Below the pieces are notes generated by a model. That model did not search any database. It worked only from the letters and a program-made list of their open reading frames with translations, and was not told the origin of the DNA. Made by a program: the position numbers and the translations under genes. Below, piece by piece: positions 22,994-52,349 of a stretch of DNA of 64,000 nucleotides. Numbering within the stretch: the stretch's first letter is position 1; each line of letters starts with the position of its first letter. This DNA comes from an uncultured Thermodesulfobacteriota bacterium. GTDB taxonomy: Bacteria > Desulfobacterota > WTBG01 > CAIYCZ01 > CAIRTM01. Location: NCBI GenBank assembly GCA_964566035.1, contig CAZMHH010000007.1, positions 4,803 to 68,802 of the forward strand. Reading direction: 5' to 3'.

Positions 22994-23509
22994 TTTTTGA
23001 GCCCCATTCTTTTTAATGTTATCATAAAAGTATTTATACTTTATGTCAACACTGTAAATTTCCAAGAAAAGCTTATTAGTGCTTGACAAAAAAAGAGAAA
23101 TAAAATATACTATAATCCAATAACTGATTTATTATATTAATCTTATCCCAAATGCTTTTATTCTTTTAGGGTTTGTATTAAATCCTGACCAATTACTGTA
23201 AAACATACTTTAATACTGACGAGGGTTGTAGTATATGGTATTATGCTATAAAATTTTTAGCATATGGGTTAATAAGGAGGTAGAGGATGAATTTACATGA
23301 ACCATGTAAGCGTTTAATATCACAACTTTTAAATTGTAATAAAAAAAGGGTTAAATTCCACATAATCCCCCACAATTTTCCATAAATATTTCCCTGTAAA
23401 ATATTCAAAGTCATAGATTAGTGCTTGGCGTTCATTTAAATGAAATAGTTGCGTCTTGCGCATGGTTTAAGGTGTTTATAAATTTAACAGAAAAATTACA
23501 GGGACAGCT

Positions 23510-24208
23510 ATGCTTGTTACACTAAAAAAACAAATACCAGAAAAAGATAGAATTTACAGTCATTTAGGCAACTCAAGAGCCAGATCCAGGTCAAAATCAA
23601 TAAGGGTGAAAATAAAAAAAATAACTGAAACCCTGCCCGATTATATCGAACCTCGTCTGGTCTACAGTAAATGGCGTGTTGATACAGGAACAGACTGCAT
23701 TAAGTTTGAAAACGGATTGGAGCTAAGAAGCCGAAAATTTGCAATGATTATGAGGCATGCAACTGAAGCGTACTGTTTTGTTGCAACCATAGGCAGTCGT
23801 ATTGACAGGAAAATCAAAAAACTTATGAAAGACAATAAGCTTTCAGATGCTTATTTGCTTGATACGGCAGGATCCTTTGCAATAGAAGATGCTGTTGAGC
23901 AGTTCTGTAATGAAATTCATAAAGAAGCTGAGCAAAAAGCAATGACAACCACAATTCGTTTCAGCCCTGGTTACTGCGACTGTTCTGTAAGTGAACAGCG
24001 CAAGCTTTTTCGTCTTGTAACAGCTGAAAAGATTGGTGTAAGTCTTACCGATGCTTGTCTTATGCAGCCCAGGAAAACAATATCAGGGATTTTTGGCATT
24101 GTTCCTCCCCAAAACATTAAACATTACTCTGCCTATATTCCGTGCAGGGATTGTTCAAGGCAAAAGTGTATGAGCAGAAGAGAAGAATATCAATCAAAAT
24201 CAATATAA
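23510..24208 (+). CDS. stand-alone methionine-synthase (MetH) activation-domain-like protein (AdoMet-binding reactivation module)
   Basis: 'RFSPGYCDC...' and 'IGVSLTDACLMQPRKTISGIFGI' match the Met_synt_B12 activation-domain motifs (RxSPGY and IGx.LTES.mM.P..SVSG). C-terminus carries an extra Cys cluster, CRDCSRQKC. CAGGGACAG ribosome-binding site before the ATG. Confidence 0.55.
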   Translation: MLVTLKKQIPEKDRIYSHLGNSRARSRSKSIRVKIKKITETLPDYIEPRLVYSKWRVDTGTDCIKFENGLELRSRKFAMIMRHATEAYCFVATIGSRIDRKIKKLMKDNKLSDAYLLDTAGSFAIEDAVEQFCNEIHKEAEQKAMTTTIRFSPGYCDCSVSEQRKLFRLVTAEKIGVSLTDACLMQPRKTISGIFGIVPPQNIKHYSAYIPCRDCSRQKCMSRREEYQSKSI

Positions 24209-24252
24209 CAAACCTGCTTGCAGACTCTAAAAAAAACAGGAGATAGATCAGA

Positions 24253-25716
24253 ATGAATATTAGAAAAGGACTCGATGGGGGTCAATATTGCCCATTAAAT
24301 GATGAGGATATAAAAAAAATACATGAAGCCACACTCAGAGTGTTTAGTGAAGTGGGTGTTGAGATAAACCATACTGAAGCCATTGAACTTTTTAAGGGTG
24401 CCGGTGCTGAAGTTGACGGTGATTCCGGAATTGTCCGAATCCCTTCTCACCTGGTTGAAAAATTAGTAGGTATGGCTCCTTCTGAAATTGTGCTGTGCGG
24501 ACGTGATGATGATCAAAGTCTTGACTGCAGGATAGGCGGAACACGTGTCTATATGGGGACCGGCGGAACAGCGCTTCAGGTGCAGGAGTCTGGAAGCAAT
24601 TCAGCCAGGCAGTCAAAGCTTGATGACATTGTTAACATGGCACGTCTTGTTGACAAACTTGAAAATATTCATTTCTATATGTTAAATGTCTATCCAAATG
24701 ACCTTGAAAACAGAAATGTTGATGTCAACCGTTTTGGAGCTGCTCTGAATAACACACAGAAACATATAATGGGAGGAGTCTATAGTGTTGAAGGAATACG
24801 CAATGTTGTCAGAATGGCTGAAATTATAGCAGGGTCTCCTGAAAAGCTGAGGGAACGCCCATTTATTTCAATGGTGGCATGTATTATAAGCCCTTTCAAG
24901 GTTGATGAGAGTTATGGAGAGCTGGCCATAGAGGTAGCCAGGCAGGGCATCCCGCTGGTGGTTCCTGCTGAGCCGTTGTGCGGAGCTACTGCCCCGATTA
25001 CACTTGCCGGAAATCTGTTGGTGCAGAATGTTGATACTCTTACAGGGGTTATGCTCAGCCAGTTGGTCAACCCCGGCACACCTATTTTATACGGTTGTAT
25101 TTCATCAATTACAGATCTGAGAGACATGAAATATCTTGCAGGAGCTGTTGAAATGGGTCTTTTGAATGCTGCATCTTCACAGATGGCAAGATTTTACGGT
25201 ATCCCGATTTATGCCACAGCAGGCATGTCTGATTCCAAGGTAAATGATGCTCAGGTTGGTTATGAGTCTGCAATGACAAACCTTATGGTTGCTCTTGCCG
25301 GAGCAAATTTTATTCACGATGCAGCGGGTTTTTTAGAGTTCTGTAAAACTGCCTCATATGATAAGCTTGTGATAGACAATGAAATTATTGGTATGGTTAT
25401 GCGTGCTGTTGAAGGAATTAAGGTTAGTGATGAGACACTTGCCTTTGATGAGATTAAAAAGGCAGGACCGGGGGGTAATTTCATCTCCTCGCGATTAACA
25501 AGGAAACTCATGCGTTCAGAACAATATAAACCCTGTTTCAGCGACAGGGAGAACAGAGATGTTTGGATGGAAGGCGGGTCAAAGGATGCTGCAACCAGGG
25601 CAACTGAGCATGTCGGCAGGGTTTTGGGTAAGGCTCGAGAAGCTGTTTTGCCCGCAGAGATCAGAAAATCTATTTTAGCTGAAATACAGGGGATTTGTCC
25701 CGAGATAATGCAATAA
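24253..25716 (+). CDS. MttB-superfamily (trimethylamine methyltransferase family) corrinoid-dependent methyltransferase, non-pyrrolysine type (MtgB-like)
   Basis: Full-length, 487 aa, with no internal stop codon, so no in-frame UAG. MttB-family TIM-barrel motifs are spread through the protein. Confidence 0.8.
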   Translation: MNIRKGLDGGQYCPLNDEDIKKIHEATLRVFSEVGVEINHTEAIELFKGAGAEVDGDSGIVRIPSHLVEKLVGMAPSEIVLCGRDDDQSLDCRIGGTRVYMGTGGTALQVQESGSNSARQSKLDDIVNMARLVDKLENIHFYMLNVYPNDLENRNVDVNRFGAALNNTQKHIMGGVYSVEGIRNVVRMAEIIAGSPEKLRERPFISMVACIISPFKVDESYGELAIEVARQGIPLVVPAEPLCGATAPITLAGNLLVQNVDTLTGVMLSQLVNPGTPILYGCISSITDLRDMKYLAGAVEMGLLNAASSQMARFYGIPIYATAGMSDSKVNDAQVGYESAMTNLMVALAGANFIHDAAGFLEFCKTASYDKLVIDNEIIGMVMRAVEGIKVSDETLAFDEIKKAGPGGNFISSRLTRKLMRSEQYKPCFSDRENRDVWMEGGSKDAATRATEHVGRVLGKAREAVLPAEIRKSILAEIQGICPEIMQ

Positions 25717-25743
25717 AAGAAGGGAAGGAGGAACAGATTAATC

Positions 25744-26535
25744 ATGATTATGATAGGTGAGAAGATAAATGCAACAATTAAGCGTGTTAAAAGCATTGTT
25801 GAGAATAGAGATAATGACGGGCTTGTTCAGCTTGCCAAAGCTCAGTCAGAGGCAGGAGCTGATATAATTGATGTAAATGTTGGAACAGGAACAGGAACTC
25901 AAGCAGATGAAATTGATGCAATACAGTGGGCAGTTGAATTGATTCAGCAGCATGTGGATAAACCGCTTTGTATTGACAGTGCCGACAAGGCTGTTCTTGA
26001 AGCTGGCTTGAAAAAAATAGACGGAAGACAGAGCATGATCAATTCCGTAAAGGCAGAAGAAAACAATATGGATGATATTATTCCTTTGGCAAAAGAGTTC
26101 AATTCCATGCTGGTAGCTCTTCCAATGGATGAAAAAGGTATTCCTGCTACTACTGCTGAAAGGGTTGATGTTTGCAGACAACTAATAAACCACTGTAAAA
26201 AATACGGGTTTTCTGTTGATAAACTATTCTTTGATCCGCTGGTGCTGCCGATATCATCTGATATTACTCAAGGGGCTATCACCCTGGACACACTTGCTGC
26301 TATCAAAAAAACATTTCCAGAGTCTAAAACAGTTATGGGGCTCTCAAATGTTTCCTATGGGCTTCCGGAGAGAAAGAAGCTCAACGCCGGTTTTATGTAT
26401 ATGGCAATTTATGCAGGTCTGGATGCTGTTATTGCAAATCCTATGGACGATGAGATTCAAATGGCTATAAAAGTGGCAGAAGCTTTAACCGGTAAAGATC
26501 CCCGTTGCAGGAGATATACAAGGGCTTTGAGATAA
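25744..26535 (+). CDS. pterin-binding methyltransferase (methylcorrinoid:tetrahydrofolate methyltransferase, MtgA/MtrH/AcsE-like)
   Basis: 'IMIGEKINATI' pterin-binding-domain start motif and DHPS-like TIM barrel. Positioned between the two mttB paralogs. Confidence 0.7.
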   Translation: MIMIGEKINATIKRVKSIVENRDNDGLVQLAKAQSEAGADIIDVNVGTGTGTQADEIDAIQWAVELIQQHVDKPLCIDSADKAVLEAGLKKIDGRQSMINSVKAEENNMDDIIPLAKEFNSMLVALPMDEKGIPATTAERVDVCRQLINHCKKYGFSVDKLFFDPLVLPISSDITQGAITLDTLAAIKKTFPESKTVMGLSNVSYGLPERKKLNAGFMYMAIYAGLDAVIANPMDDEIQMAIKVAEALTGKDPRCRRYTRALR

Positions 26536-26724
26536 TTTATAAGCCGATAAGCAAAAAAGCTCGCAGCTGGTAGCTCATAGAAAAACAAAAAGTTGGAGTC
26601 AAAAAAACGCCTGAAAACACTGGTAATAAGGCTATTTCTCTGCACTGAAATATTTTTTGTCAGTAAGTGCAAAAAAAATGAAATCTAAGACATTAAATAA
26701 TCTGTGCAATAGGAAGGATTTTTT

Positions 26725-28266
26725 ATGATTGATAATGAAGAATTTAGAAAGGGTATAGTTGTAAAGCCCTACAATAGACTTACCGAGCAGCAGGTTGGGC
26801 TTCTTGACAGAACCTCTCTTGATATACTGAAGGATCCTGGAATATGGTGTTATAATAAAAGAGCTGCAGATCTTTTTCATGAAAACGGAGCAGTGGTAAG
26901 GGAAGATTCTGATCAAAAGGGACATTTGTGGAGGATAAGCATTCCATCAGAACTTGTAAAAAAATCAGTTAAAAAAGCTCCTTCACGGTTTGTACTTGGA
27001 GCGCGCAATCCTGCAAACAGACTTTTGCTGGATGCCCAGGTACCAAGAGTATATTTTGGCTCAGGGTCTGAAACAAATGTCTGGATTGAGACCGAACTGG
27101 AAGACTTTGTAAGTCGCAGAGAACCGGGTATTAAGGTAAGGCTTCCGCGCTACAGGCAACTGCGAGGCAGCGCAGCTTTGCTGTGCAGGGCTGCAAAAAT
27201 ATGTGACAAGCTTGATAATCTTGATTTTTTTATAAGACCTGTAAATATTCAGGATGAAGGAATAACAGAAGATAATCATGATGTGAACAAGTTTTTTGCA
27301 AGTTTGAACAATATAACCAAACATGTTCAGGCAGGGTTGACAAAACTTGAAAAACTTGACGATGTTGTCCGTATGGCTGAGCTTATAGCAGGTGGAGCGG
27401 ACAATCTCAGAAAAAATCCTTTGATATCCTTTATTGCATGTGTGTTTAAAAGCCCCCTGCAAATGGTTGAAGATACAACCGATAAGGTTTTTGCAATAGT
27501 AGAGGCGGGTCTTCCGCTTGTGATATCATCATCACCGCAGGGGGGTTCCACAGCACCCATTCAGGAGACAGGAATGGTTGCCCAGATAAATGCAGAGATA
27601 CTTGCCGGTATAACTTTCACTCAGCTTATAAAACCCGGAGCACCTGTATTATATGGCAGTGTTCCAGTGCGTGCCCGCATGGATGACCTGCACGATTTAT
27701 ATGGCTGCCCTGAATTTAATCAGTATAATCATGACTGTGTTCAGTTGGCACGTCATTATCAGGTGCCGTGTTATTCCACAGCAGGAGTGGCTGATGCAAA
27801 AGTTCCCGGTATGCAGGCTTCATTTGAAAAGCTTCTTACTCATCTATATATGACAATGACCGGAGCCCAATATATTCATTATGCATTTGGGCTTTTGAAC
27901 AGGACTAATTCATTTTGTCCTGTTCAGGCTGTTATAGACAATGAACATATAGATAAGATTAAACAGAGTCTTAGAAATCCGGATGTCAGTGAACAGACCT
28001 ACGAAGAAACACTTAAGATGGTTCGCAAGGTTATGAATTCTCCCAATCGTCTTTATGCGCGTCATGCCCGCAAAGCAATTCATTCAGGACTTGTATCAGA
28101 GCCATATAAGTTTTCTGGCAGCGGCGCCGAGGACAAGGTTATTGAATATGCACTTAAGGAACTGTCCACCATAGAAGCAGAACCGGCAAGCCATATTCCT
28201 CATGAGATTCAGGACAGGATATTTGCTCAGATTTCCGGTCTTCTGCCGATACTGAAGAGCTGTTAA
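26725..28266 (+). CDS. second MttB-superfamily corrinoid-dependent methyltransferase (non-pyrrolysine)
   Basis: 513 aa, no internal stop. Collinear with the first paralog in the conserved blocks but highly diverged from it. Confidence 0.8.
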   Translation: MIDNEEFRKGIVVKPYNRLTEQQVGLLDRTSLDILKDPGIWCYNKRAADLFHENGAVVREDSDQKGHLWRISIPSELVKKSVKKAPSRFVLGARNPANRLLLDAQVPRVYFGSGSETNVWIETELEDFVSRREPGIKVRLPRYRQLRGSAALLCRAAKICDKLDNLDFFIRPVNIQDEGITEDNHDVNKFFASLNNITKHVQAGLTKLEKLDDVVRMAELIAGGADNLRKNPLISFIACVFKSPLQMVEDTTDKVFAIVEAGLPLVISSSPQGGSTAPIQETGMVAQINAEILAGITFTQLIKPGAPVLYGSVPVRARMDDLHDLYGCPEFNQYNHDCVQLARHYQVPCYSTAGVADAKVPGMQASFEKLLTHLYMTMTGAQYIHYAFGLLNRTNSFCPVQAVIDNEHIDKIKQSLRNPDVSEQTYEETLKMVRKVMNSPNRLYARHARKAIHSGLVSEPYKFSGSGAEDKVIEYALKELSTIEAEPASHIPHEIQDRIFAQISGLLPILKSC

Positions 28267-28381
28267 TAAAAAGGCGATTGTTTTATTCTTCTTTGTTGCC
28301 TTTATTGACTATATGGCAAATATGCAGATTATGATTATTGGGTTAATATTTTAAATACATAACTTTTTAAACAAGGAGCAA

Positions 28382-29083
28382 ATGATGGAAAACGATCTTA
28401 TAGAACAGATAAAATTTAATATTCTTCAGGGACGTATTGAAGCCGAAGATGAAGGGTTTGATGAAGGACTTGAGGGAAAGCCTGCTGTGACAGAATTGAT
28501 TTCCGAGGCATTGAAACAAAAGATTGACACTAAGGAAATAGTAACCGGAGCGCTTAATTCAGCAATGGAAATTGTTGGAGAAAAATTTGAAAAAGGGGAG
28601 TATCTTATTCCTGATATGCTTGCATCTGCTGAGTGTGTGGGGGCTGCCATGGATTTGATTGCTCCTCAGATGGTTGATGATGGCATTGAAAACAAGGGAA
28701 CTTTTGTTATTGCAACCGTCAAGGGAGACTTGCATGATATTGGTAAAAACATAGTGTCTATTATGGTCAAGGGTGCTGGTTATGATGTTGTGGATCTGGG
28801 AACAGATGTTGCTTCAGATCGAATTGCAAAGGAAGTAAAGGACAGAAAGGCTGCATTTCTTGGTTTATCAGCGCTTCTAACAACAACGATGAGGGAGATG
28901 GAAACAGTTATAGGCATGCTGGAAGATACAGGTATTCGAAAAAGTGTAAAGGTGCTGATAGGCGGAGCCCCTACATCAAAAGACTTTGCAAGCCAGATTG
29001 GTGCTGATGCTCACTGCAATGATGCATTTGAGGCGATAGCTGTTTTAAAGTCACTGGCTAATATAAAATCAGTTGCAGCCTAA
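28382..29083 (+). CDS. cobalamin-binding corrinoid protein (MtgC/MttC-like)
   Basis: B12-binding N-terminal cap domain plus Rossmann domain with 'DLHDIGKNIV' (DxHxxG) and 'GGAP' motifs. Confidence 0.9.
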   Translation: MMENDLIEQIKFNILQGRIEAEDEGFDEGLEGKPAVTELISEALKQKIDTKEIVTGALNSAMEIVGEKFEKGEYLIPDMLASAECVGAAMDLIAPQMVDDGIENKGTFVIATVKGDLHDIGKNIVSIMVKGAGYDVVDLGTDVASDRIAKEVKDRKAAFLGLSALLTTTMREMETVIGMLEDTGIRKSVKVLIGGAPTSKDFASQIGADAHCNDAFEAIAVLKSLANIKSVAA

Positions 29084-29101
29084 AAAGGGAAATAAAAACT
29101 T

Positions 29102-30361
29102 ATGGTAGAAAAGAAAGCATATTCAGAAGCAGTAGATACAGGCAAATATAACAAGACTACCGGGCTGCTGGGAAAGTACGATAATGTCAGACGATTCTGG
29201 GAGGATCAGTTGAGCGGTATTTTTTTAAGGCCTGCTCTAAATGAACTTGTTAAAAACAAAACTGACAGGCTCGAAAGGATACGGATTCTTGATCTTGGAT
29301 GCGGAAGCGGAGATGCCTACGATCTGATTATGAATATATATACAAAAGACCCGGGGATTTATGATTATATAACCGGTGCAATTACACACGAAAATTTGCA
29401 GGAATATGTCGGTCTTGATGTGAATGAAGATCTGTTGGAGCAGGCTAGACAGTATTGGGCAGGCAACGCGAAGCTCCGTTTTGTTACAGGAGATCTGAGT
29501 CAGGGTTTGCCGGAATCATCGGTTGGAAATGAAGCTTTTGATATGTATTATACATCCTATGGAACACTGGCTCATTTTACCGATGAGGTTAATACCCGTC
29601 TTATTGCCGATATTTTTAAACATGCATCAAATGGGGCCTTGTTTGTAGGAGATTGGCTTGGCAGATATTCCTATGAATGGCAGGATCTGTGGCACCATTC
29701 TGCAAATGAGGAATATTTTATGGATTACCGCATATCTTATATTTATGAAAAAGATGAGCGGAATAATGCTGATATTGCCTCTTTTCCACTGCGACTGATG
29801 ACACGTGATGAAATAATGAAAATAATAAATAAAGCTTCAGATAGGTCAGGGGTTAAGGTTGTTCCGGTCTGTTTTTATGACCGTTCAATATTTGTCGGAC
29901 GTCATCTTGAAACAGGAGATTATAACCGCTATTGCCCGCCAATGCGAAGCAGGGTAAACTCTCTGTTTGAATCTTATATGCGGACAGATCTTTCATCAAT
30001 CAAATTTGATTATGTTCCGAGACAAGGGTTTGACCACCTTAATAATTTTTTTGAAATGTATTTCATGTCCTGCAATGCCCTTGTTGATTATACAATTTCA
30101 CTGCTTAGCCAATATGAAAGTGAATCAGGTCTTATTAAGTCTGAACCGGAAATAAAGTCTTATTTCCCCGAACCCTTGAAGGAGGTTATGCGCACAATGC
30201 GCAAGGTTGTTGAAGGGGTCGGATCTCTGAAATACGGTGAGGTTCGTGCAAATTTTATAGAACCTCAACTGGGTTATGCATTGCGGGAGCTTGAGATAAA
30301 ACTGCAACCTGGAACCGGAGTTGGACATAGTCTGGCCGGTATATTCAGAATAGAAAAATAG
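29102..30361 (+). CDS. class I SAM-dependent methyltransferase with ~200-aa C-terminal extension
   Basis: Motif I 'ILDLGCGSGDAYD' and post-I acidic residue 'VGLDVNEDLL'. Lies 18 bp after the corrinoid protein gene. Confidence 0.65.
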   Translation: MVEKKAYSEAVDTGKYNKTTGLLGKYDNVRRFWEDQLSGIFLRPALNELVKNKTDRLERIRILDLGCGSGDAYDLIMNIYTKDPGIYDYITGAITHENLQEYVGLDVNEDLLEQARQYWAGNAKLRFVTGDLSQGLPESSVGNEAFDMYYTSYGTLAHFTDEVNTRLIADIFKHASNGALFVGDWLGRYSYEWQDLWHHSANEEYFMDYRISYIYEKDERNNADIASFPLRLMTRDEIMKIINKASDRSGVKVVPVCFYDRSIFVGRHLETGDYNRYCPPMRSRVNSLFESYMRTDLSSIKFDYVPRQGFDHLNNFFEMYFMSCNALVDYTISLLSQYESESGLIKSEPEIKSYFPEPLKEVMRTMRKVVEGVGSLKYGEVRANFIEPQLGYALRELEIKLQPGTGVGHSLAGIFRIEK

Positions 30362-30578: not shown

Positions 30579-31838
30579 ATGGAAATCTCAGAGATAGTCA
30601 GTGGCTTAACCTCAAGATCAAAAAAAGGCGCAGCGGAAATAGGAGCAGCACCTTCGATGGTTAAGAACATAATTCTTAACAAAATGGCTGATTTGCTGGA
30701 AAAATACTCTAATGATGTTATTGCCGCAAATAAATCAGACCTTAACTCTGCACTGGATAAAGGTGTTGAGGGATCTCTCTATGAAAGACTCAAATTTGAT
30801 GAGGCAAAGATAAAAGGCAGGGTAAATTCACTGAAAAAAATTACCCAACTACCGGACCCTGTAGGACAGGTGATAGAGGAAAAACAGCTTGAAAACGGGT
30901 TGACCGCTTCAAGGATAAGGGTGCCAATAGGTGTACTGCTTATGATATATGAAGCACGACCCCATGTAACAGTTAATGCAGGAGCTTTTTGCATAAAATC
31001 AGGAAATGCAATTATCTGTAAAGGTGGCAGTGAAGCGTTGCTGTGCAACAGGTTATTGGGCAAGTTGTGGTCAGATGCGCTTATGCATGCAGGTGTCTCC
31101 TCTGATGTTGTGCAGGTGGCAGAACTCAATCACGAGGAAGTTGCACAGTTGCTGACCATGAAAGATGATATTAATCTTGTAATCCCGCGCGGTGGAAAGC
31201 AGCTAATCAGAACAGTGGCTGAAAAATCATCTGTTCCGGTTATAAAACATTTTGAGGGAATTTGTCATATCTATATAGGAGACAGGGCAGACTACAGTAA
31301 GGCATTGAAAATTGTACTTGATTCAAAAATTCTTATGCCGGCAGTGTGTAATGCAGCTGAAACAGTACTGGTAGACTATAGCATGAAGGGGATTTTGCCT
31401 GATATGATTGCAAGCCTTCAGAAAAATGGTGTAGAGGTTCGTGGATGTCCGGAGGTTTGCAGCATTTTTGACGGAATAAAAGAGGCAACAGAGGATGACT
31501 GGTATACCGAATATCTTGACAGTATCTATTCTGTAAGGGTTGTTGATGGGATTCATGAGGCAATTGCCCATATTACCAAATATGGCAGTGGACATACTGA
31601 TGTAATTGTTACAGAAAATTATTCAGAGTCAAGACGTTTTGTTCGGGAAGTGGATTCATCGGTTGTTATTGTTAATGCTTCTACCATGTTTTGTGACGGT
31701 GAGACTCTTGGTATGGGGGCTGAGATAGGTATTTCAACTGACAGACTTCACGCCAGAGGTCCGATGGGTTTAAACGAGCTTACAACTTATAAGCACATTA
31801 TCATGGGAGATGGTCAGACAATGGGGCAGGGTTTTTAA
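30579..31838 (+). CDS. proA: glutamate-5-semialdehyde dehydrogenase (gamma-glutamyl phosphate reductase)
   Basis: 'IRVPIGVLLMIYEARPHVTVNAGAFCIKSGNAIICKGGSEA' and a catalytic Cys region typical of ProA. Confidence 0.9.
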   Translation: MEISEIVSGLTSRSKKGAAEIGAAPSMVKNIILNKMADLLEKYSNDVIAANKSDLNSALDKGVEGSLYERLKFDEAKIKGRVNSLKKITQLPDPVGQVIEEKQLENGLTASRIRVPIGVLLMIYEARPHVTVNAGAFCIKSGNAIICKGGSEALLCNRLLGKLWSDALMHAGVSSDVVQVAELNHEEVAQLLTMKDDINLVIPRGGKQLIRTVAEKSSVPVIKHFEGICHIYIGDRADYSKALKIVLDSKILMPAVCNAAETVLVDYSMKGILPDMIASLQKNGVEVRGCPEVCSIFDGIKEATEDDWYTEYLDSIYSVRVVDGIHEAIAHITKYGSGHTDVIVTENYSESRRFVREVDSSVVIVNASTMFCDGETLGMGAEIGISTDRLHARGPMGLNELTTYKHIIMGDGQTMGQGF

Positions 31839-31972
31839 ATGCAGATATGAGTTATTGAAAAAATGGCCATCCCTGTAAAACCTGTTTTGGAGAATTATTT
31901 CAGATTATAAAAAGGCTTTTGCCAGGTAGTTAAAAGGGTAATTGAAAATATTTAAAAATTAAATGAGGTTTT

Positions 31973-33367
31973 TTGTTTTGCTTAAGAGCCAATAGCAGAA
32001 CAGCTATTATGTCAAAGATATATGATTATTACATGAAAAGATTTAATGCCTCTCAGGTTGGAGTGGATGCAGCTCAGAGACGCATAGGATCAGAACTTAA
32101 ATTTCCGCTTGTATGTGAAGATGGGTCAGCTGTAAGTCGTGATGTGGTAGATGTTTTATGGTCATATCTGCAGGGGCTTGGATGGAAACCGGTTGTTGAT
32201 GGAATGACTAAAAAAATAGTAGGAGCTCAGCGGCCCGGTGAGAAAAATGATACCATTGCATCATGTGAAACCGGTTATTGTAAAACAGAATTTTCACTTT
32301 CCCATGTTGCTGACCTTAACCAGTTGAATAAAGATATAGAAGATCTTAAACACATTCTTCAGAATTTTTCAGAACAACACCGTGTCAGATTTCTTGGATA
32401 TGGAATACATCCGGTTTCACACCCAGGCAAAAAGTTATTGATGAAAAAAAGCCGTTCAGGTGTATGGGACAAATTGTTTGGAGCCAATCGACATATCGCT
32501 CATGAGGATGGTGATGATGTGCATCTTTTCACTGTTAACGCTGCAAGCCATACTCATATAAGTGTAGCCCCAGATGAGGCCGTAAAAACCGTAAATGTGC
32601 TTAATGGTTTTGCAGGAGCCCAGATTGCACTCAATGCCAATTCAAGTATCTGGAAAGGTGATATTGATCCCCGATATAAATGTGTTGCTGAAAAATTCTG
32701 GGATTGGTGGATGTCTGACAGAAAAAGGATTGGTGTTCCTGAAGTTCCGTTTCGGGATATGCGCCATTATATTGATACCGTATCAGAGTTCAGGCCAGTG
32801 TTTATTCTGAGAGAAGGGAAACCATTGCTCCTTAGCAGGTATGATTCCTTTGCAGGATATTTTGACGAAACCGATGCCATAGCTGTTGATACTGATAATA
32901 AAGAAGTTAATGTTGTCCCGGAGCATGGAGATTTTGATCTGCACTGCACCTGTTACTGGTATAATGCAAGGATATCGCGCTATTTTACAGTTGAAAACAG
33001 AATTAATGATCAGCAGCCTCCCGCAGAATTGATGACTGTTCCTGCAATAACCCTTGGTCTTGTATCAGCACTTGATGAAGCATGGGAAGAGGTTAGAGTC
33101 TGGGACTGGATTGAGATTCGAAAAAGCAGGGAGACAGCCTGTGAAAAAGCTATGGATGGTGCTATTGGAAAGGTTTCACTTGTTGAGTATATCCAACGAA
33201 TGCTGTCTGTTGCAAGGCTTGGTTTAGAACGAAGGGGCAGAGGAGAAGAGATGTTTCTTGCACCTCTTTTTGAACGTCTTCAAAACAGGAAGTGCCCTGC
33301 AGAAGAATCCGAAAGAGTGTTTAGAAAAGAGGGTATGGCAGGATTTCTTAATTCGGTAACAATATAA
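31973..33367 (+). CDS. glutamate--cysteine ligase family 2 (GCS2/YbdK/EgtA-like carboxylate-amine ligase), putative
   Basis: N-terminal 'IGSELKFPLV' resembles the GCS2 'GxExEFxLVD' motif. The ORF starts at a TTG, since the track uses alternative start codons. The true start could instead be the ATG at 32009. Confidence 0.45.
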   Translation: MFCLRANSRTAIMSKIYDYYMKRFNASQVGVDAAQRRIGSELKFPLVCEDGSAVSRDVVDVLWSYLQGLGWKPVVDGMTKKIVGAQRPGEKNDTIASCETGYCKTEFSLSHVADLNQLNKDIEDLKHILQNFSEQHRVRFLGYGIHPVSHPGKKLLMKKSRSGVWDKLFGANRHIAHEDGDDVHLFTVNAASHTHISVAPDEAVKTVNVLNGFAGAQIALNANSSIWKGDIDPRYKCVAEKFWDWWMSDRKRIGVPEVPFRDMRHYIDTVSEFRPVFILREGKPLLLSRYDSFAGYFDETDAIAVDTDNKEVNVVPEHGDFDLHCTCYWYNARISRYFTVENRINDQQPPAELMTVPAITLGLVSALDEAWEEVRVWDWIEIRKSRETACEKAMDGAIGKVSLVEYIQRMLSVARLGLERRGRGEEMFLAPLFERLQNRKCPAEESERVFRKEGMAGFLNSVTI

Positions 33368-33385
33368 CATGACTATTATTAGAAA

Positions 33386-34627
33386 ATGAACAATACAAAT
33401 ACATCTCAGCCTACCTTGGCGCTTGATTTGCCGCCAGGCATGACAATAGAAGATTTGATATATCCTGTTTACTATCTTGATACAACTCAAATCAACCTTA
33501 ATGATTCTGACAGTAAAGCAATAGTAAACAATGCGTTATATGATTTATTCTGTCTTGCCCATGATGGTGCTGTTAAGGGACAAACTCTCATTAAACTGCA
33601 TATTGGCGAACCACGTTGCAAGACAAGGTTGCGTCCGGAATATACTGCTTCTATTAAGCGTTTCCTTGAACATCAGGGAGCAGACAGTGTTGTTGCCGGT
33701 GATTCAACGGTTGCATATACAGGAATGCGCGGGCATAAACAGAACCCCATAGATGATGTTTCCAGTTATATGAACCTTGCCGAAAAGCATGGCTGGTCTG
33801 TGAATGGAACTGCGGGGGTTCCGTTCGTTGTGCTTGATAGACCTTGTTCTGCAATACAAGGTGTATATGAGTTCGGTGAGGAACAGCAATGCAGAAAGGT
33901 GGACGGGGTAGCAAGATATACAGACTTTTTCTTATCCGGTGGATTTGCTGAAGCGGATTTTATTGTTAACAGTGCACACCTGACACTGCATGGTTTGGCA
34001 GGACTGGCAGGTTGTGTTAAGAACATTGCAATGGGGTGCGCCGGTTTGACAGGAAAATTGAGAATGCATCAGTTTCTTCTTCCCGGATTTGATGGGGATT
34101 TATGCACGCGTTGCGGGATATGTGTTGCAAACTGTCCGGAAGATGCTCTATCATTAACTGATACTGATCTATTTCCCTGGGTTGCTGAAGGGGTATGTAT
34201 CGGGTGCGGGGAGTGTGTTTCATTATGTCCAAGTAAGGCTGTAAAGCTGTCCGGAAAAGATATCAATGACTGGTCAAGGGGAGAGGAGACACTTCCCGTA
34301 CGTATGGCAGATTATACCATAGGGCTCATGAACGGATTCTGGGATAAATCCCTGCATGTGCTGCATATGTATAGCATAACGGAACTTTGTGACTGTGTGG
34401 ATAAGTTTCAAAAACCATTTGTGGATGATTTAGGCTTTGTTGTCAGTAAAAATCCCTTTGCGGTTGATCTTGTAAGTGCCGACCTGCTCAGCAGAAAACA
34501 TTCAGAAAGCGTTTCAGTAAATATTGATAAGAAAATTAAATCTGCGGAGTTAATAGCTGATTATGTAAAAGAAAAATATGGTATTTTCAGTAAAGTTCCT
34601 GTGCATAAAGTTGTAATAAAAAAATGA
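33386..34627 (+). CDS. DUF362-family protein with inserted 2x[4Fe-4S] ferredoxin domain
   Basis: Two 'CxxCxxCxxxCP' motifs (CTRCGICVANCP and CIGCGECVSLCP). DUF362-like N- and C-terminal blocks. Confidence 0.55.
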   Translation: MNNTNTSQPTLALDLPPGMTIEDLIYPVYYLDTTQINLNDSDSKAIVNNALYDLFCLAHDGAVKGQTLIKLHIGEPRCKTRLRPEYTASIKRFLEHQGADSVVAGDSTVAYTGMRGHKQNPIDDVSSYMNLAEKHGWSVNGTAGVPFVVLDRPCSAIQGVYEFGEEQQCRKVDGVARYTDFFLSGGFAEADFIVNSAHLTLHGLAGLAGCVKNIAMGCAGLTGKLRMHQFLLPGFDGDLCTRCGICVANCPEDALSLTDTDLFPWVAEGVCIGCGECVSLCPSKAVKLSGKDINDWSRGEETLPVRMADYTIGLMNGFWDKSLHVLHMYSITELCDCVDKFQKPFVDDLGFVVSKNPFAVDLVSADLLSRKHSESVSVNIDKKIKSAELIADYVKEKYGIFSKVPVHKVVIKK

Positions 34628-34805: not shown

Positions 34806-35780
34806 ATGATACGGTTTGAAGAGATATCCAAGGTATATCCGGGAAAAGTAAAGGCGGTTTCCGGTATATCACTTGATGTTTCAGCCGGAGAAACGCTTGT
34901 ATTGCTTGGAACAAGCGGAAGCGGAAAGACTACCCTTTTAAAGATGGTGAACAGATTGATAGAACCATCAGGAGGGCGTATCCTGATTGAGCAACAGGAT
35001 ATTATGGATTATAATCCTGTAGAGCTAAGGCGAAGGATTGGATATGCTATTCAGCATATAGGGCTGTTTCCCCATATGACTGTCGCAGAGAATATTGCTG
35101 TTGTTCCTCAACTGTTGAAATGGTCTCGTAAAAACATACTTCAACAAACTGAAAAGTTATTATCCATGACAGGTCTCGCACCGGATGAATTTAAGGACAG
35201 ATATCCGTTCCAGTTGAGCGGGGGCCAAAGGCAGAGGGTTGGGGTAGCAAGGGCATTGGCTGCCGATCCTGTAATTGTGCTTATGGATGAACCTTTTGGT
35301 GCATTAGATCCTCTCACCCGAGAAAGCCTGCAGGATGAGTTTATAGAGCTTGAAGCTGATATTAAAAAAACTATTCTTTTTGTCACCCATGATGTGTTTG
35401 AGGCTGTAAAAATGGGAGACAGGGTTGCGCTTATAGACAACGGCATTCTGCAACAGCTTTCTACCCCTTCAGAACTTATAGAAAATCCTGCCAACGAATT
35501 TGTTTCATCTTTCCTGGGCCAGCATCGGTTTCAGTTATTACTTCTTACAAAAAAACTTAAAGATGTAATTAAAGCCGGTGAAACAGAGTGGATTGAACAA
35601 ACAAAGCCGGAAGTCTATCTTGATGCAGAACAGTCAATTATTAAGGCGCTTGACACATTCGGGAAAACCAAAACAAAAACCTTGCCCGTGTTTGAGGGGG
35701 AATCAAATAATATAGGAACTCTTGCAAAAAAGGAGTTGCTTGCTATTATTTCAGATATTCTGGGGGATATCAGTCAATAG
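34806..35780 (+). CDS. ABC transporter ATP-binding protein, osmoprotectant (glycine betaine/choline/carnitine) uptake type (OpuCA/OpuBA-like)
   Basis: Walker A 'GTSGSGKTT', signature 'LSGGQRQRV' and Walker B 'LMDEPFGALD'. C-terminal regulatory extension. Confidence 0.85.
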   Translation: MIRFEEISKVYPGKVKAVSGISLDVSAGETLVLLGTSGSGKTTLLKMVNRLIEPSGGRILIEQQDIMDYNPVELRRRIGYAIQHIGLFPHMTVAENIAVVPQLLKWSRKNILQQTEKLLSMTGLAPDEFKDRYPFQLSGGQRQRVGVARALAADPVIVLMDEPFGALDPLTRESLQDEFIELEADIKKTILFVTHDVFEAVKMGDRVALIDNGILQQLSTPSELIENPANEFVSSFLGQHRFQLLLLTKKLKDVIKAGETEWIEQTKPEVYLDAEQSIIKALDTFGKTKTKTLPVFEGESNNIGTLAKKELLAIISDILGDISQ

Positions 35781-35845
35781 TTATAATACAGCGTGGACTG
35801 TATTTTCCGGAAGAACACTTAAAACCTAATACAGGTTGATAAAAA

Positions 35846-36514
35846 ATGGATTTGGCAACCTTCTGGCAGAGAATGGGGCAGGATATAATACATGCAACGA
35901 TAGAACATATTTATCTTACCTTTATCGCTCTTATTTTGGCCTTGTTTATCGCTATCCCTCTGGGTATATATCTCACGAGAACCAGATATCAAAAACTTGC
36001 AGATATTGTTCTCAATATTTTTGGTGTGGTTCAGACAATTCCAAGTCTTGCTCTTATTGCCCTCATAGTTGTCATTTTTGCTTTAGCAGGTTTGCCAACT
36101 ATAGGTACGTTGCCGGGTATAGTAGCCCTTGTTATGTATGCCCTGCTTCCGTTATTGCGCAATACTTATACCGGCATTAAGCAGGTTGATCCAGCTCTTA
36201 TAGAAGTAGCCAGGGGAATGGGGATGAGAGACTATCAAATGCTTTTTACTGTCGAACTGCCTTTGGCTCTGCCTGTAATTACAGCAGGTATAAGGATTTC
36301 AACGGTCTGGACGATAGGTGTGGCAACACTTGTGGGGCTTATCGGGGCAGGAGGGTTGGGTGATCTTATTATCAGGGGACTGAGAACAATACAGATTGAT
36401 TATCTTTTAGCCGGCACTGTACCTGCTGCTATTCTTGCGCTCTTGGCGGATTTTATAATAAGCAGGCTTGAGCGCTGGCTAGTGCCTGAAGGGCTTTCCA
36501 AAAACAGTCAGTAG
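35846..36514 (+). CDS. ABC transporter permease (OpuCB/OpuBB-like)
   Basis: Five or six TM segments. 'EVARGMGMRDYQMLFTVELPLA' is the EAA loop. Confidence 0.85.
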   Translation: MDLATFWQRMGQDIIHATIEHIYLTFIALILALFIAIPLGIYLTRTRYQKLADIVLNIFGVVQTIPSLALIALIVVIFALAGLPTIGTLPGIVALVMYALLPLLRNTYTGIKQVDPALIEVARGMGMRDYQMLFTVELPLALPVITAGIRISTVWTIGVATLVGLIGAGGLGDLIIRGLRTIQIDYLLAGTVPAAILALLADFIISRLERWLVPEGLSKNSQ

Positions 36515-36569
36515 AGAAAAACGGGGATCACAAAACTGACAAACAGATCGGATATGCGAGACGATTTTT

Positions 36570-37511: not shown

Positions 37512-37904
37512 CCCTGAATTTTCTGATACCGGAAAGCCAGTTCCAGATAACAGATAACCCATGACTCCATTTATATACTTCTGCCAGCTATGAACCAAAT
37601 ATTTAACCAGTATTATAGAGTTGAAATAATACAAGTATCCTGATATTATAGCCTGAATATTATTGAAAAATATGTAATATAAACTGACCAATAAGCAGTA
37701 TTTACAGAGTGAGCATCCCCGACTGTCATTTCAAAGGATCATAGCGACTGAGAAATATAAGTTTATAGTACATATCTTTCCGATTTTTTTTACCTTCGAA
37801 TTGAGGATTTAAATGACAGGAGCAGGATAGTAATTATATATTGCATTTTATACTGTTAAGAGTATTTGAGACTGATAATATTTTTTGTGTATGGAGAGTT
37901 TCAG

Positions 37905-44512: not shown

Positions 44513-46168
<1,656 letters not shown>

Positions 46169-46330
46169 CTGCTGGCTGTTAAGCTGTTGAGCAAGGAGCA
46201 GCTATCAGGTGTCGGCAGTCGGCTGTCAGCAAAAAATAAAAGCTGATAAGCTGATAAGCCGTACAGAAAAGATTATTTACCATTAAATGCAGAAAATAAA
46301 GCTGAAGTTATTAAATAAGAGGATTCATCT

Positions 46331-46792: not shown

Positions 46793-46922
46793 TTAATCCG
46801 GAAAGAGTACTGGAGAAAAATCTTTGAAAACGCTGAAGTCTGTCCCTGTGGTGCAGACAGGTGAATGTCTGGTGTAACACCTTACTGCCAGCATTATTAA
46901 ATGATAAAAGGATTAAGGATAT

Positions 46923-48071: not shown

Positions 48072-48077
48072 ATATAT

Positions 48078-49220: not shown

Positions 49221-49598
49221 AAAGGCAACTTTTGTTTTTGATGGGTTTCAGGATTAGTAACTTAGAAGTTATTTTTTGCATTTACTGGCAAAAAATATTT
49301 CAGTGTAGAGAAATAGCCTTGAAAACAGAAGTCAGAATAAAAAGTGAAAAGCTGCAAGTTACAAGTTTAAGAGTTTAAAAGTTTACCCGCTTTTGCTGAG
49401 AGCTACGATAACGACCACGAAGGGTTTGCTGATAGCTGACAACTGATACCTGACAGCTGCTTTTTGCTATGAGCTACCAGCTACGAGCTAACCCGGACAT
49501 CTTTTTGGTTCCGGCTTGTCCGGGTTAGGGGTCACTCATTAAAGGCTCTCTGTCAAGGCAATAATAGTTTCCCTGAGACAGAAGAATCTTTTTTCTGC

Positions 49599-52338: not shown

Positions 52339-52349
52339 ACTTTGAAGTC

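Follow-up and report, generated by a model that had tools for sequence, protein, structure and literature searches.

Corrinoid methyltransferases of anaerobes are inactivated when their Co(I) is oxidised, and the route by which they are repaired sets the cost of the system and its tolerance of oxygen and of redox conditions. The ATP-driven RamA/RACE proteins are used by the methylamine, betaine, methanol and O-demethylase systems, and to our knowledge SAM-dependent reductive methylation is known only for methionine synthase (MetH). In the 64-kb stretch of DNA analysed here (the window), the gene for a small protein of the MetH reactivation type, which we call RD, stands directly upstream of an mttB gene, and the question is what such a protein does there. 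The initial annotation proposed a MetH-like reductive methylation in place of a RamA/RACE enzyme. We think that this is probably right, and would put at about 0.6 the probability that RD carries out SAM-dependent reductive methylation of the operon's corrinoid protein, a chemistry that we infer from homology and synteny.

RD as a stand-alone reactivation protein

The gene and the motifs of its product are as follows.

23510-24208, + strand: RD, stand-alone MetH-type reactivation protein (AdoMet-binding, class II methyltransferase) of the TM0269 kind; first gene of the operon
23957-23983, + strand: RFSPGYCDC (residues 150-158), the RxxxGY AdoMet motif (R150, G154, Y155), then the clade-specific C156, then C158
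24032-24100, + strand: IGVSLTDACLMQPRKTISGIFGI (residues 175-197), the second motif quoted in the initial annotation, confirmed
24143-24169, + strand: C212-x2-C215-x4-C220 (CX2CX4C), C-terminal motif, putative metal site (Fe-S or Zn)

The open reading frame has an ATG start and a 232-aa product, and it is as first described, with both of the quoted motifs in place. The PF02965 search that had been proposed gave a match to RD that is significant (E=2.3e-9, 37.6 bits, the gathering cut-off being 25 bits) but partial, as the alignment covers only residues 143-195 (about 50 residues), or profile positions 192-246 of 273. Beyond these residues the assignment is made because of the likeness to TM0269 and the predicted structure. 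In a phmmer search of the PDB, RD matched 1J6R (T. maritima TM0269) with E=1.7e-9 over residues 15-196, and the RD family profile aligned to 1J6R over positions 4-206 with E=3e-30. The AF2 model of RD (pLDDT 93.9, pTM 0.89) matched 1J6R in Foldseek with E=5e-14 and a TM of 0.83, and all 19 of the significant PDB matches to the model were MetH reactivation domains. The fold predicted is the class II fold, with a long antiparallel sheet flanked by helices. The Pfam domains of RD do not include the RamA/RACE architecture of a Fer2 or 2x4Fe-4S domain, a RACo middle domain and a C-terminal ASKHA ATPase. The full-length homology to TM0269, the predicted fold and the RxxxGY motif agree, and support the claim that RD is a stand-alone, compact AdoMet reactivation module of the MetH type (class II, RxxxGY).

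TM0269 is the best match of RD in both sequence and structure, and the two share the compact fold of about 200-230 aa and the motifs R-x-S-P-G-Y and P-R-K-T-I. Like TM0269, RD is a separate polypeptide of that size, and by sequence comparison it is homologous to it across the whole length. However TM0269 adjoins and reactivates a three-module MetH, whereas RD heads an MttB/corrinoid operon and falls in a separate clade, and the 64-kb window holds no S-methyl_trans/MetH gene that would make RD the neighbour of a MetH without activation domain. TM0269 also has PGYG where RD has PGYC, and ends without the CX2CX4C tail. TM0269 together with AdoMet was reportedly found by Huang et al. in 2007 (a study cited in PMC7857596) to reactivate a separate MetH polypeptide. 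The activation domain of E. coli and human MetH (PF02965; 1MSK, 6BM5, 2O2K) has the class II fold and RxxxGY in common with RD, and the same chemistry is presumed, but it has about 100 more residues, forms part of the MetH polypeptide, has flavodoxin or MSR as electron donor and lacks the Cys cluster. In structural alignments its identity to RD is only about 13-15%.

The AdoMet motif and the cysteine site

The family profile aligns R150-F-S-P-G154-Y155 to R-P-A-P-G-Y of E. coli MetH, leaving intact RxxxGY, the motif by which class II methyltransferases bind SAM (PMC9508554). Conservation of R150, G154 and Y155 across the RD family is complete or at least 90%, and the Glu that lines up with the one in E. 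coli 'DRLAE' is invariant or nearly so.

The extra C-terminal Cys cluster pointed out in the initial annotation is real (C212, C215 and C220, with C156 and C158 in addition), but it is not peculiar to RD, since most stand-alone members of the family carry the tail, including those linked to MetH. The CX2CX4C tail is present in 94 of 104 family members, and all 80 genome-derived MttB-linked RDs have both PGYC and the tail, so that the four-Cys signature is invariant among them. The AF2 model keeps a pLDDT of about 90 up to residue 220, Cys tail included. CX2CX4C is a proven [4Fe-4S] motif in ThiC (PMC4389238), and RD shares it at its C-terminus with the ThiC-like proteins that have a site-differentiated [4Fe-4S] cluster, a resemblance at the level of the motif only. 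C156 is a candidate for the fourth ligand of the putative metal site.

This leads to a wider suggestion that we make tentatively and hold to be doubtful. RDs of the MttB-linked clade, and perhaps most stand-alone RDs, may have a redox-active Fe-S cluster, made by CX2CX4C and the PGYC Cys right after the AdoMet motif, and so be self-contained reactivases supplying both electron and methyl group to Co(II). They would then make up a third class of corrinoid reductive activator, separate both from the MetH domain, which depends on flavodoxin, and from the ATP-dependent RACE, and would serve non-MetH systems: the MttB clusters of Desulfobacterota and, in a xylanase locus, a URO-D/corrinoid pair.

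The operon in the window

The region around RD holds the following features.

23083-23509, + strand: leader/intergenic region upstream of RD; best sigma-70-like match of the region, TTGACA-17-TATACT, at 23083-23111
24253-25716, + strand: MttB1, non-pyrrolysine methyltransferase of the MttB superfamily (MT1)
25744-26535, + strand: MT2, pterin-binding methyl-THF:corrinoid methyltransferase (MtgA/MeTr-like); PF00809, E=7e-28
26725-28266, + strand: MttB2, divergent second MttB-family paralog; PF06253, E=8e-55
28382-29083, + strand: corrinoid protein, B12-binding cap and Rossmann domain; PF02310 and PF02607, D-x-H-x-x-G in 'GDLHDIG'
29102-30361, + strand: MT419, class I SAM-methyltransferase-like; weak Methyltransf_25/31 matches
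30579-34627, + strand: variable downstream module of ProA (30579-31838), GCS2-like carboxylate-amine ligase (31973-33367) and DUF362 protein with 2x[4Fe-4S] (33386-34627)
34806-37511, + strand: OpuA-type glycine-betaine/proline-betaine ABC transporter with ATPase, permease and OpuAC binding protein; ABC_tran, BPD_transp_1 and OpuAC (E=2e-61)

The promoter at 23083-23111 comes from a promoter scan and is a consensus match only, which is weak evidence, and a scan of the whole window at Rfam gathering thresholds found no B12, SAM or THF riboswitch in the 420-nt leader. The gap between RD and MttB1 is 44 nt. MttB1 matches PF06253 with E=6e-103 and TIGR02369 with 469.6 bits, under the cut-off of 525 for that model, and its PDB matches are the MttB structure 7XCL (6e-85) and MtgB (2QNE/9YCE, 6e-80). 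The position of the pyrrolysine UAG is taken in MttB1 by Met325 (25225-25227), there is no in-frame UAG, and the Rfam model PYLIS_3 matches at 62.9 bits with the AUG aligned to the UAG. MttB1 is thus not a true, pyrrolysine-containing TMA methyltransferase, and the Met is invariant at this position in all 66 MttB1 orthologs. MttB2 is 31% identical to MttB1 (BLASTP).

MT2 scores 285.9 bits with NF005719 (cut-off 259). The best NCBIfam matches of the corrinoid protein are of the MtgC and pyl_corrinoid types, with metH at 137 bits, and this protein is the presumed substrate of RD. The three components of such a methyl-transfer system, MT1 (PF06253), corrinoid protein (PF02310/PF02607) and MT2 (PF00809), are therefore present together in the window. 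MT419 is specific to the RD-headed type of cluster, where it is present in 32 of 43 loci and is highly conserved (79% mean column identity among orthologs). Its matches in the PDB, SAM methyltransferases and juvenile-hormone-acid O-methyltransferases, are all weak, and the nearest are carboxyl O-methyltransferases with E of 1e-3 or worse.

Conservation of the operon in related genomes

The RD family was sampled as 108 homologs, and in a global library there were 8090 cluster representatives, 614 of them at E<=1e-30. Relatives of RD were found in 478 species-level genomes. The search for related loci used an alignment of the close clade of RD and gave 80 genomic loci, almost all from Desulfobacterota, with a conserved order of seven genes: RD, MttB1, pterin methyltransferase, MttB2, corrinoid protein, the 419-aa methyltransferase-like protein and an AsnB-like protein. 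Carriers of the RD-headed cluster include the cultured Desulfoferrobacter suflitae DRH4 (locus L065) and the complete genomes CP070769 and CP070843.

The placement of RD directly upstream of mttB, to which attention had been drawn, is strongly conserved across these loci. Of the 73 loci with enough downstream sequence, 65 have an MttB gene right after RD, 6 have MTHFR and then MttB, and 2 have the pterin methyltransferase. The full set of MttB, pterin methyltransferase and corrinoid protein was present in 52 of the 55 loci with at least 6.5 kb downstream, and independent metagenome loci with 34-41% identity have the same gene order. Comparative gene order thus argues strongly that the placement of RD before mttB is a conserved operon arrangement and not due to chance. 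There are two loci (L050 and L058) in which RD is with the pterin methyltransferase and corrinoid protein only, and MttB is absent.

The part downstream of the core is less constant. The module of ProA, GCS2-like ligase and DUF362 protein was found in only 3 of 43 related loci, and in most (37 of 43) there is an AsnB-like amidotransferase in its place. MTHFR adjoins the RD cluster in several loci. Osmolyte-related genes recur as neighbours, for OpuAC (near the cluster in about 10 related loci), lysine/glutamate 2,3-aminomutase-like proteins and glutamine synthetase. Among the small neighbouring genes only that of a MarR-type regulator recurs, in 40 of the 80 loci.

Separation from the MetH-linked proteins

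In a neighbour-joining tree all 148 of the PGYC-type RDs fall in one clade, and the RDs in confirmed MTHFR-RD-MetH operons (P0072, P0081, P0104 and the second RD of locus L089) are outside it. Locus L089 has both kinds in one genome, as a three-module MetH with its own small RD is encoded about 4 kb from the MttB-linked RD. A homocysteine-methyltransferase module is near the RD-headed cluster in 2 of 80 loci, with none in the present window. In L090 there is a fused Hcy-S-methyltransferase/MTHFR gene just downstream. From the tree and gene neighbourhoods RD is probably a dedicated paralog recruited to the MttB operon. The wider family also has orphan members, such as P0093, in Prevotella, and P0056.

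The activator position and the electron donor

The claim that there is no RamA/RACE homolog in the window holds. When almost every ORF of 150 aa or more in the 64-kb window was scanned with Pfam, no RACo, DUF1638, MetH or flavodoxin came up, and tblastn of two RACo references and a DUF1638 reference against the 64 kb found nothing. In at least four relatives (L055, L011, L012 and L095) there are RACE-type activators within 10 kb of the RD gene, so these lineages do own RACE enzymes. However in the two cases that can be resolved, L095 and L055, the RACE belongs to a separate paralogous cluster, of pterin methyltransferase, corrinoid protein, two MttB genes, DUF1638 and RACo, that adjoins the RD-headed cluster, while the RD-headed clusters themselves have neither DUF1638 nor RACo. 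RD and RACE thus seem to fill the same activator slot, and from gene content RD would appear to take the place of RamA/RACE (with DUF1638) in this type of MttB cluster, although in the relatives with a RACE gene within 10 kb that RACE could serve both types. The RD-linked and RACE-linked corrinoid proteins are equally similar to the MetH B12 domain (36-43% identity in both groups), so there is no sign of specific co-adaptation of the RD-linked corrinoid protein to the MetH type, and we set this aside as a signal.

With regard to the source of electrons, the DUF362 protein with 2x[4Fe-4S] (33386-34627) had been put forward as donor. As described above it is present in only 3 of the 43 loci that are long enough, always with ProA and the GCS2-like ligase, and is therefore part of the variable downstream module, and we reject it as a general electron partner of RD. 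Among the 80 loci no small ferredoxin or flavodoxin recurs in the related operons.

Comparison with known systems

RamA/RACE proteins (RACo, COG3894/DUF4445, often with DUF1638) have the same presumed job as RD, the return of a Co(II) corrinoid to the active cycle, but fold and mechanism are unrelated: they have a 2Fe-2S or 4Fe-4S domain with an ASKHA ATPase, are driven by ATP and use no methyl donor. For the betaine and methylamine systems that have been characterised, the activators described are of the RamA type (PMC12478193, PMC5764234), as the initial annotation had stated. MtgBCD(E) of Ruegeria and Phaeobacter and MtgABC of Desulfitobacterium hafniense have the same logic of MT1, corrinoid protein and pterin MT2 as the present operon, and are tied to betaine uptake and C1 oxidation, but for the Mtg systems it is RamA (with DUF1638) that is described for reactivation, with no PF02965 protein (PMC12478193, PMC5764234), where the present operon has RD. 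The opposite crossover has been genetically documented in Desulfovibrio and Phaeobacter, in which a MetH without PF02965 is activated by a RamA-type protein (Price et al. 2018, PMC5764234). There RACE serves MetH, and here a MetH-type RD seems to serve an MttB system. Since MetH can have RamA-like reactivation, reactivation modules are exchangeable between MetH and the methylotrophic corrinoid systems.

A cluster of related kind was already noted by bioinformatics in 2022, and is widespread in diverse bacteria (Williams et al. 2022, PMC9324843). It resembles the present operon in that a stand-alone activation protein of the MetH type goes together with a corrinoid protein and a non-pyrrolysine MttB homolog, but the second methyltransferase is a homocysteine-binding one and methionine synthesis was proposed. 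The present operon has in contrast a pterin-binding (methyl-THF) module, two MttB paralogs, MT419 and AsnB-like or ProA/GCS2/DUF362 genes, these differences being judged from the description of the 2022 cluster. Our literature searches turned up no experiments on a protein of the RD type in a methylotrophic corrinoid system.

Alternative readings

The alternative that bears most directly on the chemistry is that RD is a redox or conformational partner and not a SAM-dependent methylase, its four-Cys Fe-S site reducing Co(II) and/or the protein holding the corrinoid base-off and cap-off, perhaps as a corrinoid-loading chaperone, with the methyl trap coming from the operon's substrate via MttB. 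The invariance of C156, C212, C215 and C220 in all 80 MttB-linked RDs, the high confidence with which the Cys tail is modelled, the ThiC precedent for CX2CX4C and the lack of a separate conserved electron donor in the operon would all fit. But the conservation of RxxxGY and the aligned Glu argues for retained SAM binding, MetH-linked relatives with a four-Cys tail are found in MTHFR-RD-MetH operons of the classical kind, for which SAM-dependent repair is established, and an Fe-S cluster and the use of SAM are mutually compatible, so we regard this as unlikely. It is quite unlikely too, in our view, that RD serves methionine synthesis, either by reactivating a three-module MetH encoded elsewhere or because the pterin methyltransferase and corrinoid protein double as a split methionine synthase whose homocysteine-binding module is at another site (compare MtgC/MtgD/MtgE of Ruegeria), with the MttB genes just sharing the hub. 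In Ruegeria one corrinoid hub is proven to serve both betaine demethylation and methionine synthesis (PMC12478193), methionine synthesis is what was proposed for the 2022 clusters of MttB homolog, Hcy-methyltransferase, corrinoid and activation protein (PMC9324843), and the two loci without MttB, the fused gene in L090 and the MetH in L089 point the same way. The rarity of Hcy-methyltransferase modules near the cluster counts against it, as do the separate RD of the adjacent MetH in L089 and the position of every MetH-linked RD outside the PGYC clade; and were it correct it would alter the physiological purpose of RD and not its chemistry.

RD might also be a stoichiometric donor, passing a methyl group from SAM to the corrinoid at each turnover for biosynthetic methylation by the MttB paralogs working in reverse, and not a repair protein. 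The operon does encode a SAM-methyltransferase-like protein along with enzymes that form amides (AsnB-like or GCS2-like), and the osmolyte-related neighbours give it a biosynthetic flavour. However it already has a methyl-THF:corrinoid methyltransferase, which would make a second donor redundant, and the adjoining MTHFR of several loci and the betaine uptake genes suit catabolism. In MetH, methylation by SAM at the activation domain needs the four-coordinate Co(I) made in reactivation, which is separate from turnover, and this too makes the stoichiometric role very improbable. Finally the partial Pfam match and the existence of orphan family members could be taken to mean that RD is what remains of a MetH activation domain, drifting or degenerate, its adjacency to mttB being meaningless. 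The gene order is kept at an identity of about 40% in no fewer than 70 species-level genomes, with many columns invariant, and this, with the high pLDDT and the large number of close cluster representatives, effectively refutes the remnant reading.

Proposed mechanism and significance

We thus return to SAM-dependent reductive methylation by RD as the best-supported reading, one in which SAM binding, docking on the corrinoid protein, the source of the electron and the direction in which methyl groups flow through the operon are all putative. When the corrinoid cofactor is accidentally oxidised to inactive Co(II), RD would dock on the uncapped B12 domain of the corrinoid protein. An electron from a low-potential donor, which may pass via the putative four-Cys metal site of RD itself, would give Co(I), and the methyl group of S-adenosylmethionine held at the RxxxGY site would trap this as CH3-Co(III), with which the corrinoid protein would re-enter the methyl-transfer cycle. 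The four-Cys site next to the SAM pocket may be where electrons enter RD, a candidate built-in entry point that lends itself to testing.

The analysis defines a conserved and uncharacterised seven-gene operon, and the RD clade that goes with it is found in sulfate reducers and syntrophs abundant in sediments, among them partner organisms of archaea that oxidise methane and ethane. Reconstitution of these MttB enzymes may require SAM and a reductant, and not RamA and ATP. If our reading is true, the presence of a MetH-type module for an MttB operon would mean that the SAM route of corrinoid repair is used outside methionine synthesis.

Identity and fold of the reactivation protein

The open reading frame at 23510-24208 (+) is real and encodes the protein of 232 aa that we call RD. 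It carries both motifs named in the initial annotation, RFSPGYCDC at residues 150-158 and IGVSLTDACLMQPRKTISGIFGI at residues 175-197. The PF02965 (Met_synt_B12) match suggested there as a check is significant (E=2.3e-9, 37.6 bits, gathering cut-off 25 bits) but only partial, with residues 143-195 aligned to profile positions 192-246 of 273. The metH models of NCBIfam were matched at the C-terminal tip only, and by the Pfam evidence alone RD would be a motif-level match.

Assignment of the whole protein is based on other comparisons. Residues 15-196 are similar to the stand-alone protein TM0269 of Thermotoga maritima (1J6R, "activation domain of methionine synthase"; E=1.7e-9 in phmmer against PDB sequences), and a profile of 104 RD family sequences matches TM0269 over essentially its full length (E=3e-30) and also reaches the activation domains of Thermus and E. 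coli MetH. The AlphaFold2 model built from the family alignment has a pLDDT of 93.9 and pTM of 0.89. In a Foldseek search of the PDB its top match is 1J6R (E=5e-14, TM 0.83 on target), and the 19 matches at E<=1e-3 comprise nothing but MetH reactivation domains (Thermus, E. coli, human). In the profile alignment the R-F-S-P-G-Y that is invariant in the family lines up with E. coli R-P-A-P-G-Y, RxxxGY being the SAM-binding motif of class II methyltransferases (PMC9508554), and E126, invariant or nearly so, with the Glu of E. coli "DRLAE". The profile, model and motif matches together identify RD, from sequence and predicted structure, as a reactivation domain of the MetH type that is compact and stands alone.

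Gene neighbourhood in the window

RD is the first gene of a co-directional string, in this order:

23510-24208 (+), RD
24253-25716, MttB1, PF06253 (E=6e-103)
25744-26535, pterin-binding methyl-THF:corrinoid methyltransferase (pterin MT), NF005719, above cut-off
26725-28266, MttB2, 31% identical to MttB1
28382-29083, corrinoid protein, B12-binding_2 and B12-binding domains
29102-30361, MT419, 419 aa, class I SAM-methyltransferase-like
then ProA, a GCS2-like ligase, a DUF362 protein with 2x[4Fe-4S] and an OpuA-type betaine ABC transporter
37866-39464, flavin amine oxidase (PF01593), 532 aa

The placement of RD directly upstream of mttB was thus correctly described, the gap to MttB1 being 44 nt. 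On the 5' side there is a leader of 420 nt and then divergently oriented pilin-like genes. A consensus scan gave a good sigma-70-like match in the leader, and no Rfam element was found in it. The flavin amine oxidase lies directly 3' of the transporter and may act on a demethylated amine product.

About 10 kb 3' of the operon there is a region for sulfur-amino-acid biosynthesis (44870-54456), with three Cys/Met PLP enzymes (44870-46168, 46923-48071 and 48078-49220), an Rrf2 regulator, a PALP cysteine-synthase-like protein, a MetX-like alpha/beta hydrolase and MetW, and no methionine synthase gene among them.

Pfam scans of practically all window ORFs of at least 150 aa gave no RACo/RamA, DUF1638, MetH/homocysteine methyltransferase or flavodoxin, and tblastn of the window with two RACo and one DUF1638 protein from related loci gave no match, in agreement with the earlier statement that no RamA/RACE homolog is present there.

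A conserved operon in Desulfobacterota

It could be argued that the adjacency of RD and mttB is meaningless. However the same gene order is found in distant loci and recurs among the best 80 genomic loci, and the adjacency is therefore meaningful. Independent metagenome and MAG loci with RDs only 34-41% identical to that of the window keep the order RD-(MTHFR)-MttB-pterin MT-MttB-corrinoid protein. The genome scan, with one genome per species, gave 478 loci with an RD relative, and the best 80, annotated by BLAST, are almost all from Desulfobacterota (Desulfobacterales, Syntrophobacterales, Syntrophales, Desulfobacca, Desulfomonilaceae, SEEP-SRB2 and Eth-SRB1), including one cultured strain, Desulfoferrobacter suflitae DRH4. 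Counts for these loci are given in the table.

Genes associated with RD in the best 80 loci
Position; gene; loci
Next after RD (at least 1.6 kb downstream); MttB; 65/73
Next after RD; MTHFR then MttB; 6/73
Next after RD; pterin MT; 2/73
Within the cluster (at least 6.5 kb downstream, 55 loci); MttB1 54, pterin MT 54, MttB2 53, corrinoid protein 53
Within the cluster (at least 9.5 kb downstream); MT419; 32/43
Same loci; AsnB-like amidotransferase; 37/43
Same loci; ProA/GCS2-like/DUF362 trio; 3/43
About 0.8 kb 5' of RD; MarR-type regulator; 40/80

The conserved operon is thus (MarR)-RD-MttB1-pterin MT-MttB2-corrinoid protein-MT419-AsnB-like (window 23510-30361, and loci L011 to L090), and it is apparently uncharacterised. 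In the window and three related loci (L016, L031 and L045) AsnB-like is replaced by ProA, GCS2-like and DUF362/ferredoxin; the AsnB-like and GCS2-like enzymes are both ATP-dependent and amide-forming at carboxylates. The DUF362 protein had been put forward as electron donor to RD, and its rarity, always in the trio, leaves that proposal without comparative support. No recurrent ferredoxin or flavodoxin was found near RD in the best 80 loci.

No protein of the operon is better conserved than MT419, whose 24 orthologs have a mean column identity of 79% and are about 62% identical to the window copy. MT419 is confined to this cluster type, with weak similarity only, to carboxyl O-methyltransferases (JHAMT, BioC, Tam-like). 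Osmolyte-type genes, for a lysine/glutamate 2,3-aminomutase-like radical SAM protein and glutamine synthetase, lie beside some clusters (L002 5771-8235; L089 18842-20146), and about 10 loci have an OpuAC binding-protein gene nearby.

The family is large: of 1.84 billion cluster representatives, 8090 belong to it at E<=1e-3, and 614 still do at E<=1e-30. Stand-alone proteins of about 220-260 aa make up nearly all of the best 150.

Relationship to MetH-linked reactivation proteins

Three family members outside the close clade (P0072, P0081 and P0104) are in MTHFR-RD-MetH operons, whose MetH, of 792-793 aa, consists of three modules and lacks the activation domain; the arrangement at TM0269 is of this type. 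In a neighbour-joining tree of 185 RDs one clade holds, with no exceptions, all 148 sequences with Cys directly after the RxxxGY motif (PGYC), and every confirmed MetH-linked RD is outside it.

Locus L089 (Desulfobacteraceae Eth-SRB1) has both kinds. Its three-module MetH (808 aa, S-methyl_trans, Pterin_bind, B12-binding_2 and B12-binding) is 5' of the cluster and has directly 5' of it a small RD-like gene with motif RFSAGYGDF and no Cys tail (L089 2674-5738 for the two), while a PGYC-type RD heads an MttB operon about 4 kb away. The presence of both kinds at L089 is strong evidence against reading the window RD as no more than a MetH repair protein that happens to lie beside mttB, and the MttB-linked RD is best seen as a dedicated paralog.

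Outside the main operon type there are other settings. At L096 (6893-9936) an MtaA/CmuA-like URO-D methyltransferase and a corrinoid protein are followed by an RD of 311 aa, which is extended at its N terminus and lacks the Cys tail, and this is a second non-MetH setting. The trio lies within a locus, on a 1-Mb contig, of GH10 xylanases and a Por_Secre_tail protein, and may carry out corrinoid-dependent demethylation of methylated xylan sugars using a MetH-type RD. An outlier is P0056 (L091 3192-9753), a divergent PGYC-type RD, 31% identical, from a high-GC organism. It follows a branched-chain-type ABC transporter, and genes for a URO-D family protein, for HpaB and for an AMP-binding enzyme are 5' of it; MttB and corrinoid protein are both absent within 9 kb.

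Cysteine motifs

The C-terminal cluster C212-x2-C215-x4-C220 (window 24143-24169) is present as first described, but it is not an extra feature: CX2CX4C is found in 94 of the 104 stand-alone members of the family alignment, MetH-linked ones included, so the tail is a family trait. TM0269, the L089 MetH-linked RD and some others lack it entirely. In the AlphaFold2 model pLDDT is about 90 up to residue 220.

PGYC-clade proteins have C156 directly after the AdoMet motif (window 23972-23983) and a three-Cys tail (66 sequences), while many other RDs, often MetH-linked and Firmicutes-type, have the four-Cys tail C-x4-C-x2-C-x4-C (15 sequences). The association of fourth-Cys position with lineage (Fisher's exact p=4e-9) probably reflects close to a single evolutionary event, and the p value overstates the evidence. 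Among the MttB-linked RDs from genomes, PGYCDW and the tail are common to all 80; PGYCDC is found in the window RD and its two closest relatives.

In this motif the tail resembles ThiC, a SAM enzyme whose [4Fe-4S] motif is likewise a CX2CX4C near the C terminus (PMC4389238). The widespread triad, with a fourth Cys at one of two positions, points to a putative, so far undescribed metal site in most MetH reactivation proteins that stand alone. A rival, less likely explanation for RD is a redox or chaperone role in which SAM is not used; the conserved cysteines speak for it, and the SAM motif, invariant or nearly so, against it.

MttB1 and the pyrrolysine element

MttB1 has a match at 25225-25324 (62.9 bits, gathering score 38) to PYLIS_3, the pyrrolysine insertion element of mttB (Rfam). 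The UAG of the model is aligned to the AUG of Met325, and the ORF (24253-25716) has no in-frame stop. Several base pairs are lost, so the match is one of coding-sequence similarity to true mttB, and a functional RNA element is poorly supported. Met is at the Pyl-aligned position in 66/66 MttB1 orthologs (context AGMSDSK). Taken with the match, this marks MttB1, on sequence, as a very close non-Pyl relative of the true TMA methyltransferase, with Met for Pyl.

RD and the RACE/DUF1638 pair

Loci L095 (1-15466) and L055 (1917-19673) each have a pair of adjoining paralogous methyltransferase clusters. The order in type A is pterin MT-corrinoid protein-MttB-MttB-DUF1638-RACo, the RACo having Fer2, RACo_linker, Raco_middle and RACo_C_ter domains, and type B is (MarR)-RD-MttB1-pterin MT-MttB2-corrinoid protein-MT419-AsnB. 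Between types the corrinoid proteins share about 46% identity, and within a type 62-67%. Reactivation in the roseobacter MtgBCD and split-MetH systems is assigned to RamA together with DUF1638 (PMC12478193; PMC5764234), and the natural reading by analogy is that type A would be repaired by RACE/DUF1638 and type B by RD. The two loci present a natural either/or arrangement of reactivation genes. At least four relatives (L055, L095, L011 and L012) have a RACE gene within 10 kb of RD; these lineages therefore do own RACE enzymes, which counts against that reading.

Proposed role

Repair of the operon's corrinoid protein by SAM-dependent reactivation is the best-supported reading, to which we give a probability of about 0.6. 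It builds on the fold, motif, synteny and clade structure described here. RD would dock on the corrinoid protein, its presumed partner, once the cofactor has fallen into its inactive Co(II) form; a low-potential donor would supply the electron that gives Co(I), and SAM, putatively bound at the RxxxGY site, would methylate this to CH3-Co(III) by the MetH mechanism (summarised in PMC10293825). The corrinoid protein could then return to methyl transfer between MttB1/MttB2 and the pterin MT. RD as a stoichiometric SAM donor is an unlikely rival to this repair cycle.

A less likely alternative is that RD serves methionine synthesis, or a hub shared with it. A genomics paper has noted, "in diverse bacteria", clusters in which a non-Pyl MttB homolog is combined with a homocysteine methyltransferase, corrinoid protein and activation protein, and has proposed a methionine-synthesis role for them (PMC9324843). 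The L089 MetH, and at L090 (13885-15531) a fused Hcy-S-methyltransferase/MTHFR directly 3' of the RD-headed cluster, hint at such a link in some lineages.

Stand-alone RDs such as TM0269 are known, the domain "can be a separate protein" (Price et al., PMC5764234), and there is genetic evidence in Desulfovibrio and Phaeobacter for the reverse cross-over, with RamA-type proteins repairing MetH that lacks PF02965 (PMC5764234). In the searchable literature we found no account of a cluster variant that combines a methyl-THF module with two MttB paralogs, or of how very strongly it is conserved in Desulfobacterota. Nor did we find there the clade split from MetH-linked RDs, the alternation of RD with RACE/DUF1638 in adjoining paralogous clusters, or the four-Cys signature.

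At two loci (L050 and L058) the partners of RD are a pterin methyltransferase and corrinoid protein only, and thus the constant set is RD plus folate and B12 modules. Of the four module types of MetH this set has three, and MttB stands in for the homocysteine module. With regard to direction of methyl flow, the window has a betaine transporter, several loci have MTHFR, and MttB1 is similar to MttB and MtgB in PDB sequence comparison; on these grounds we favour an operon in which a quaternary amine would be demethylated catabolically into methyl-THF.
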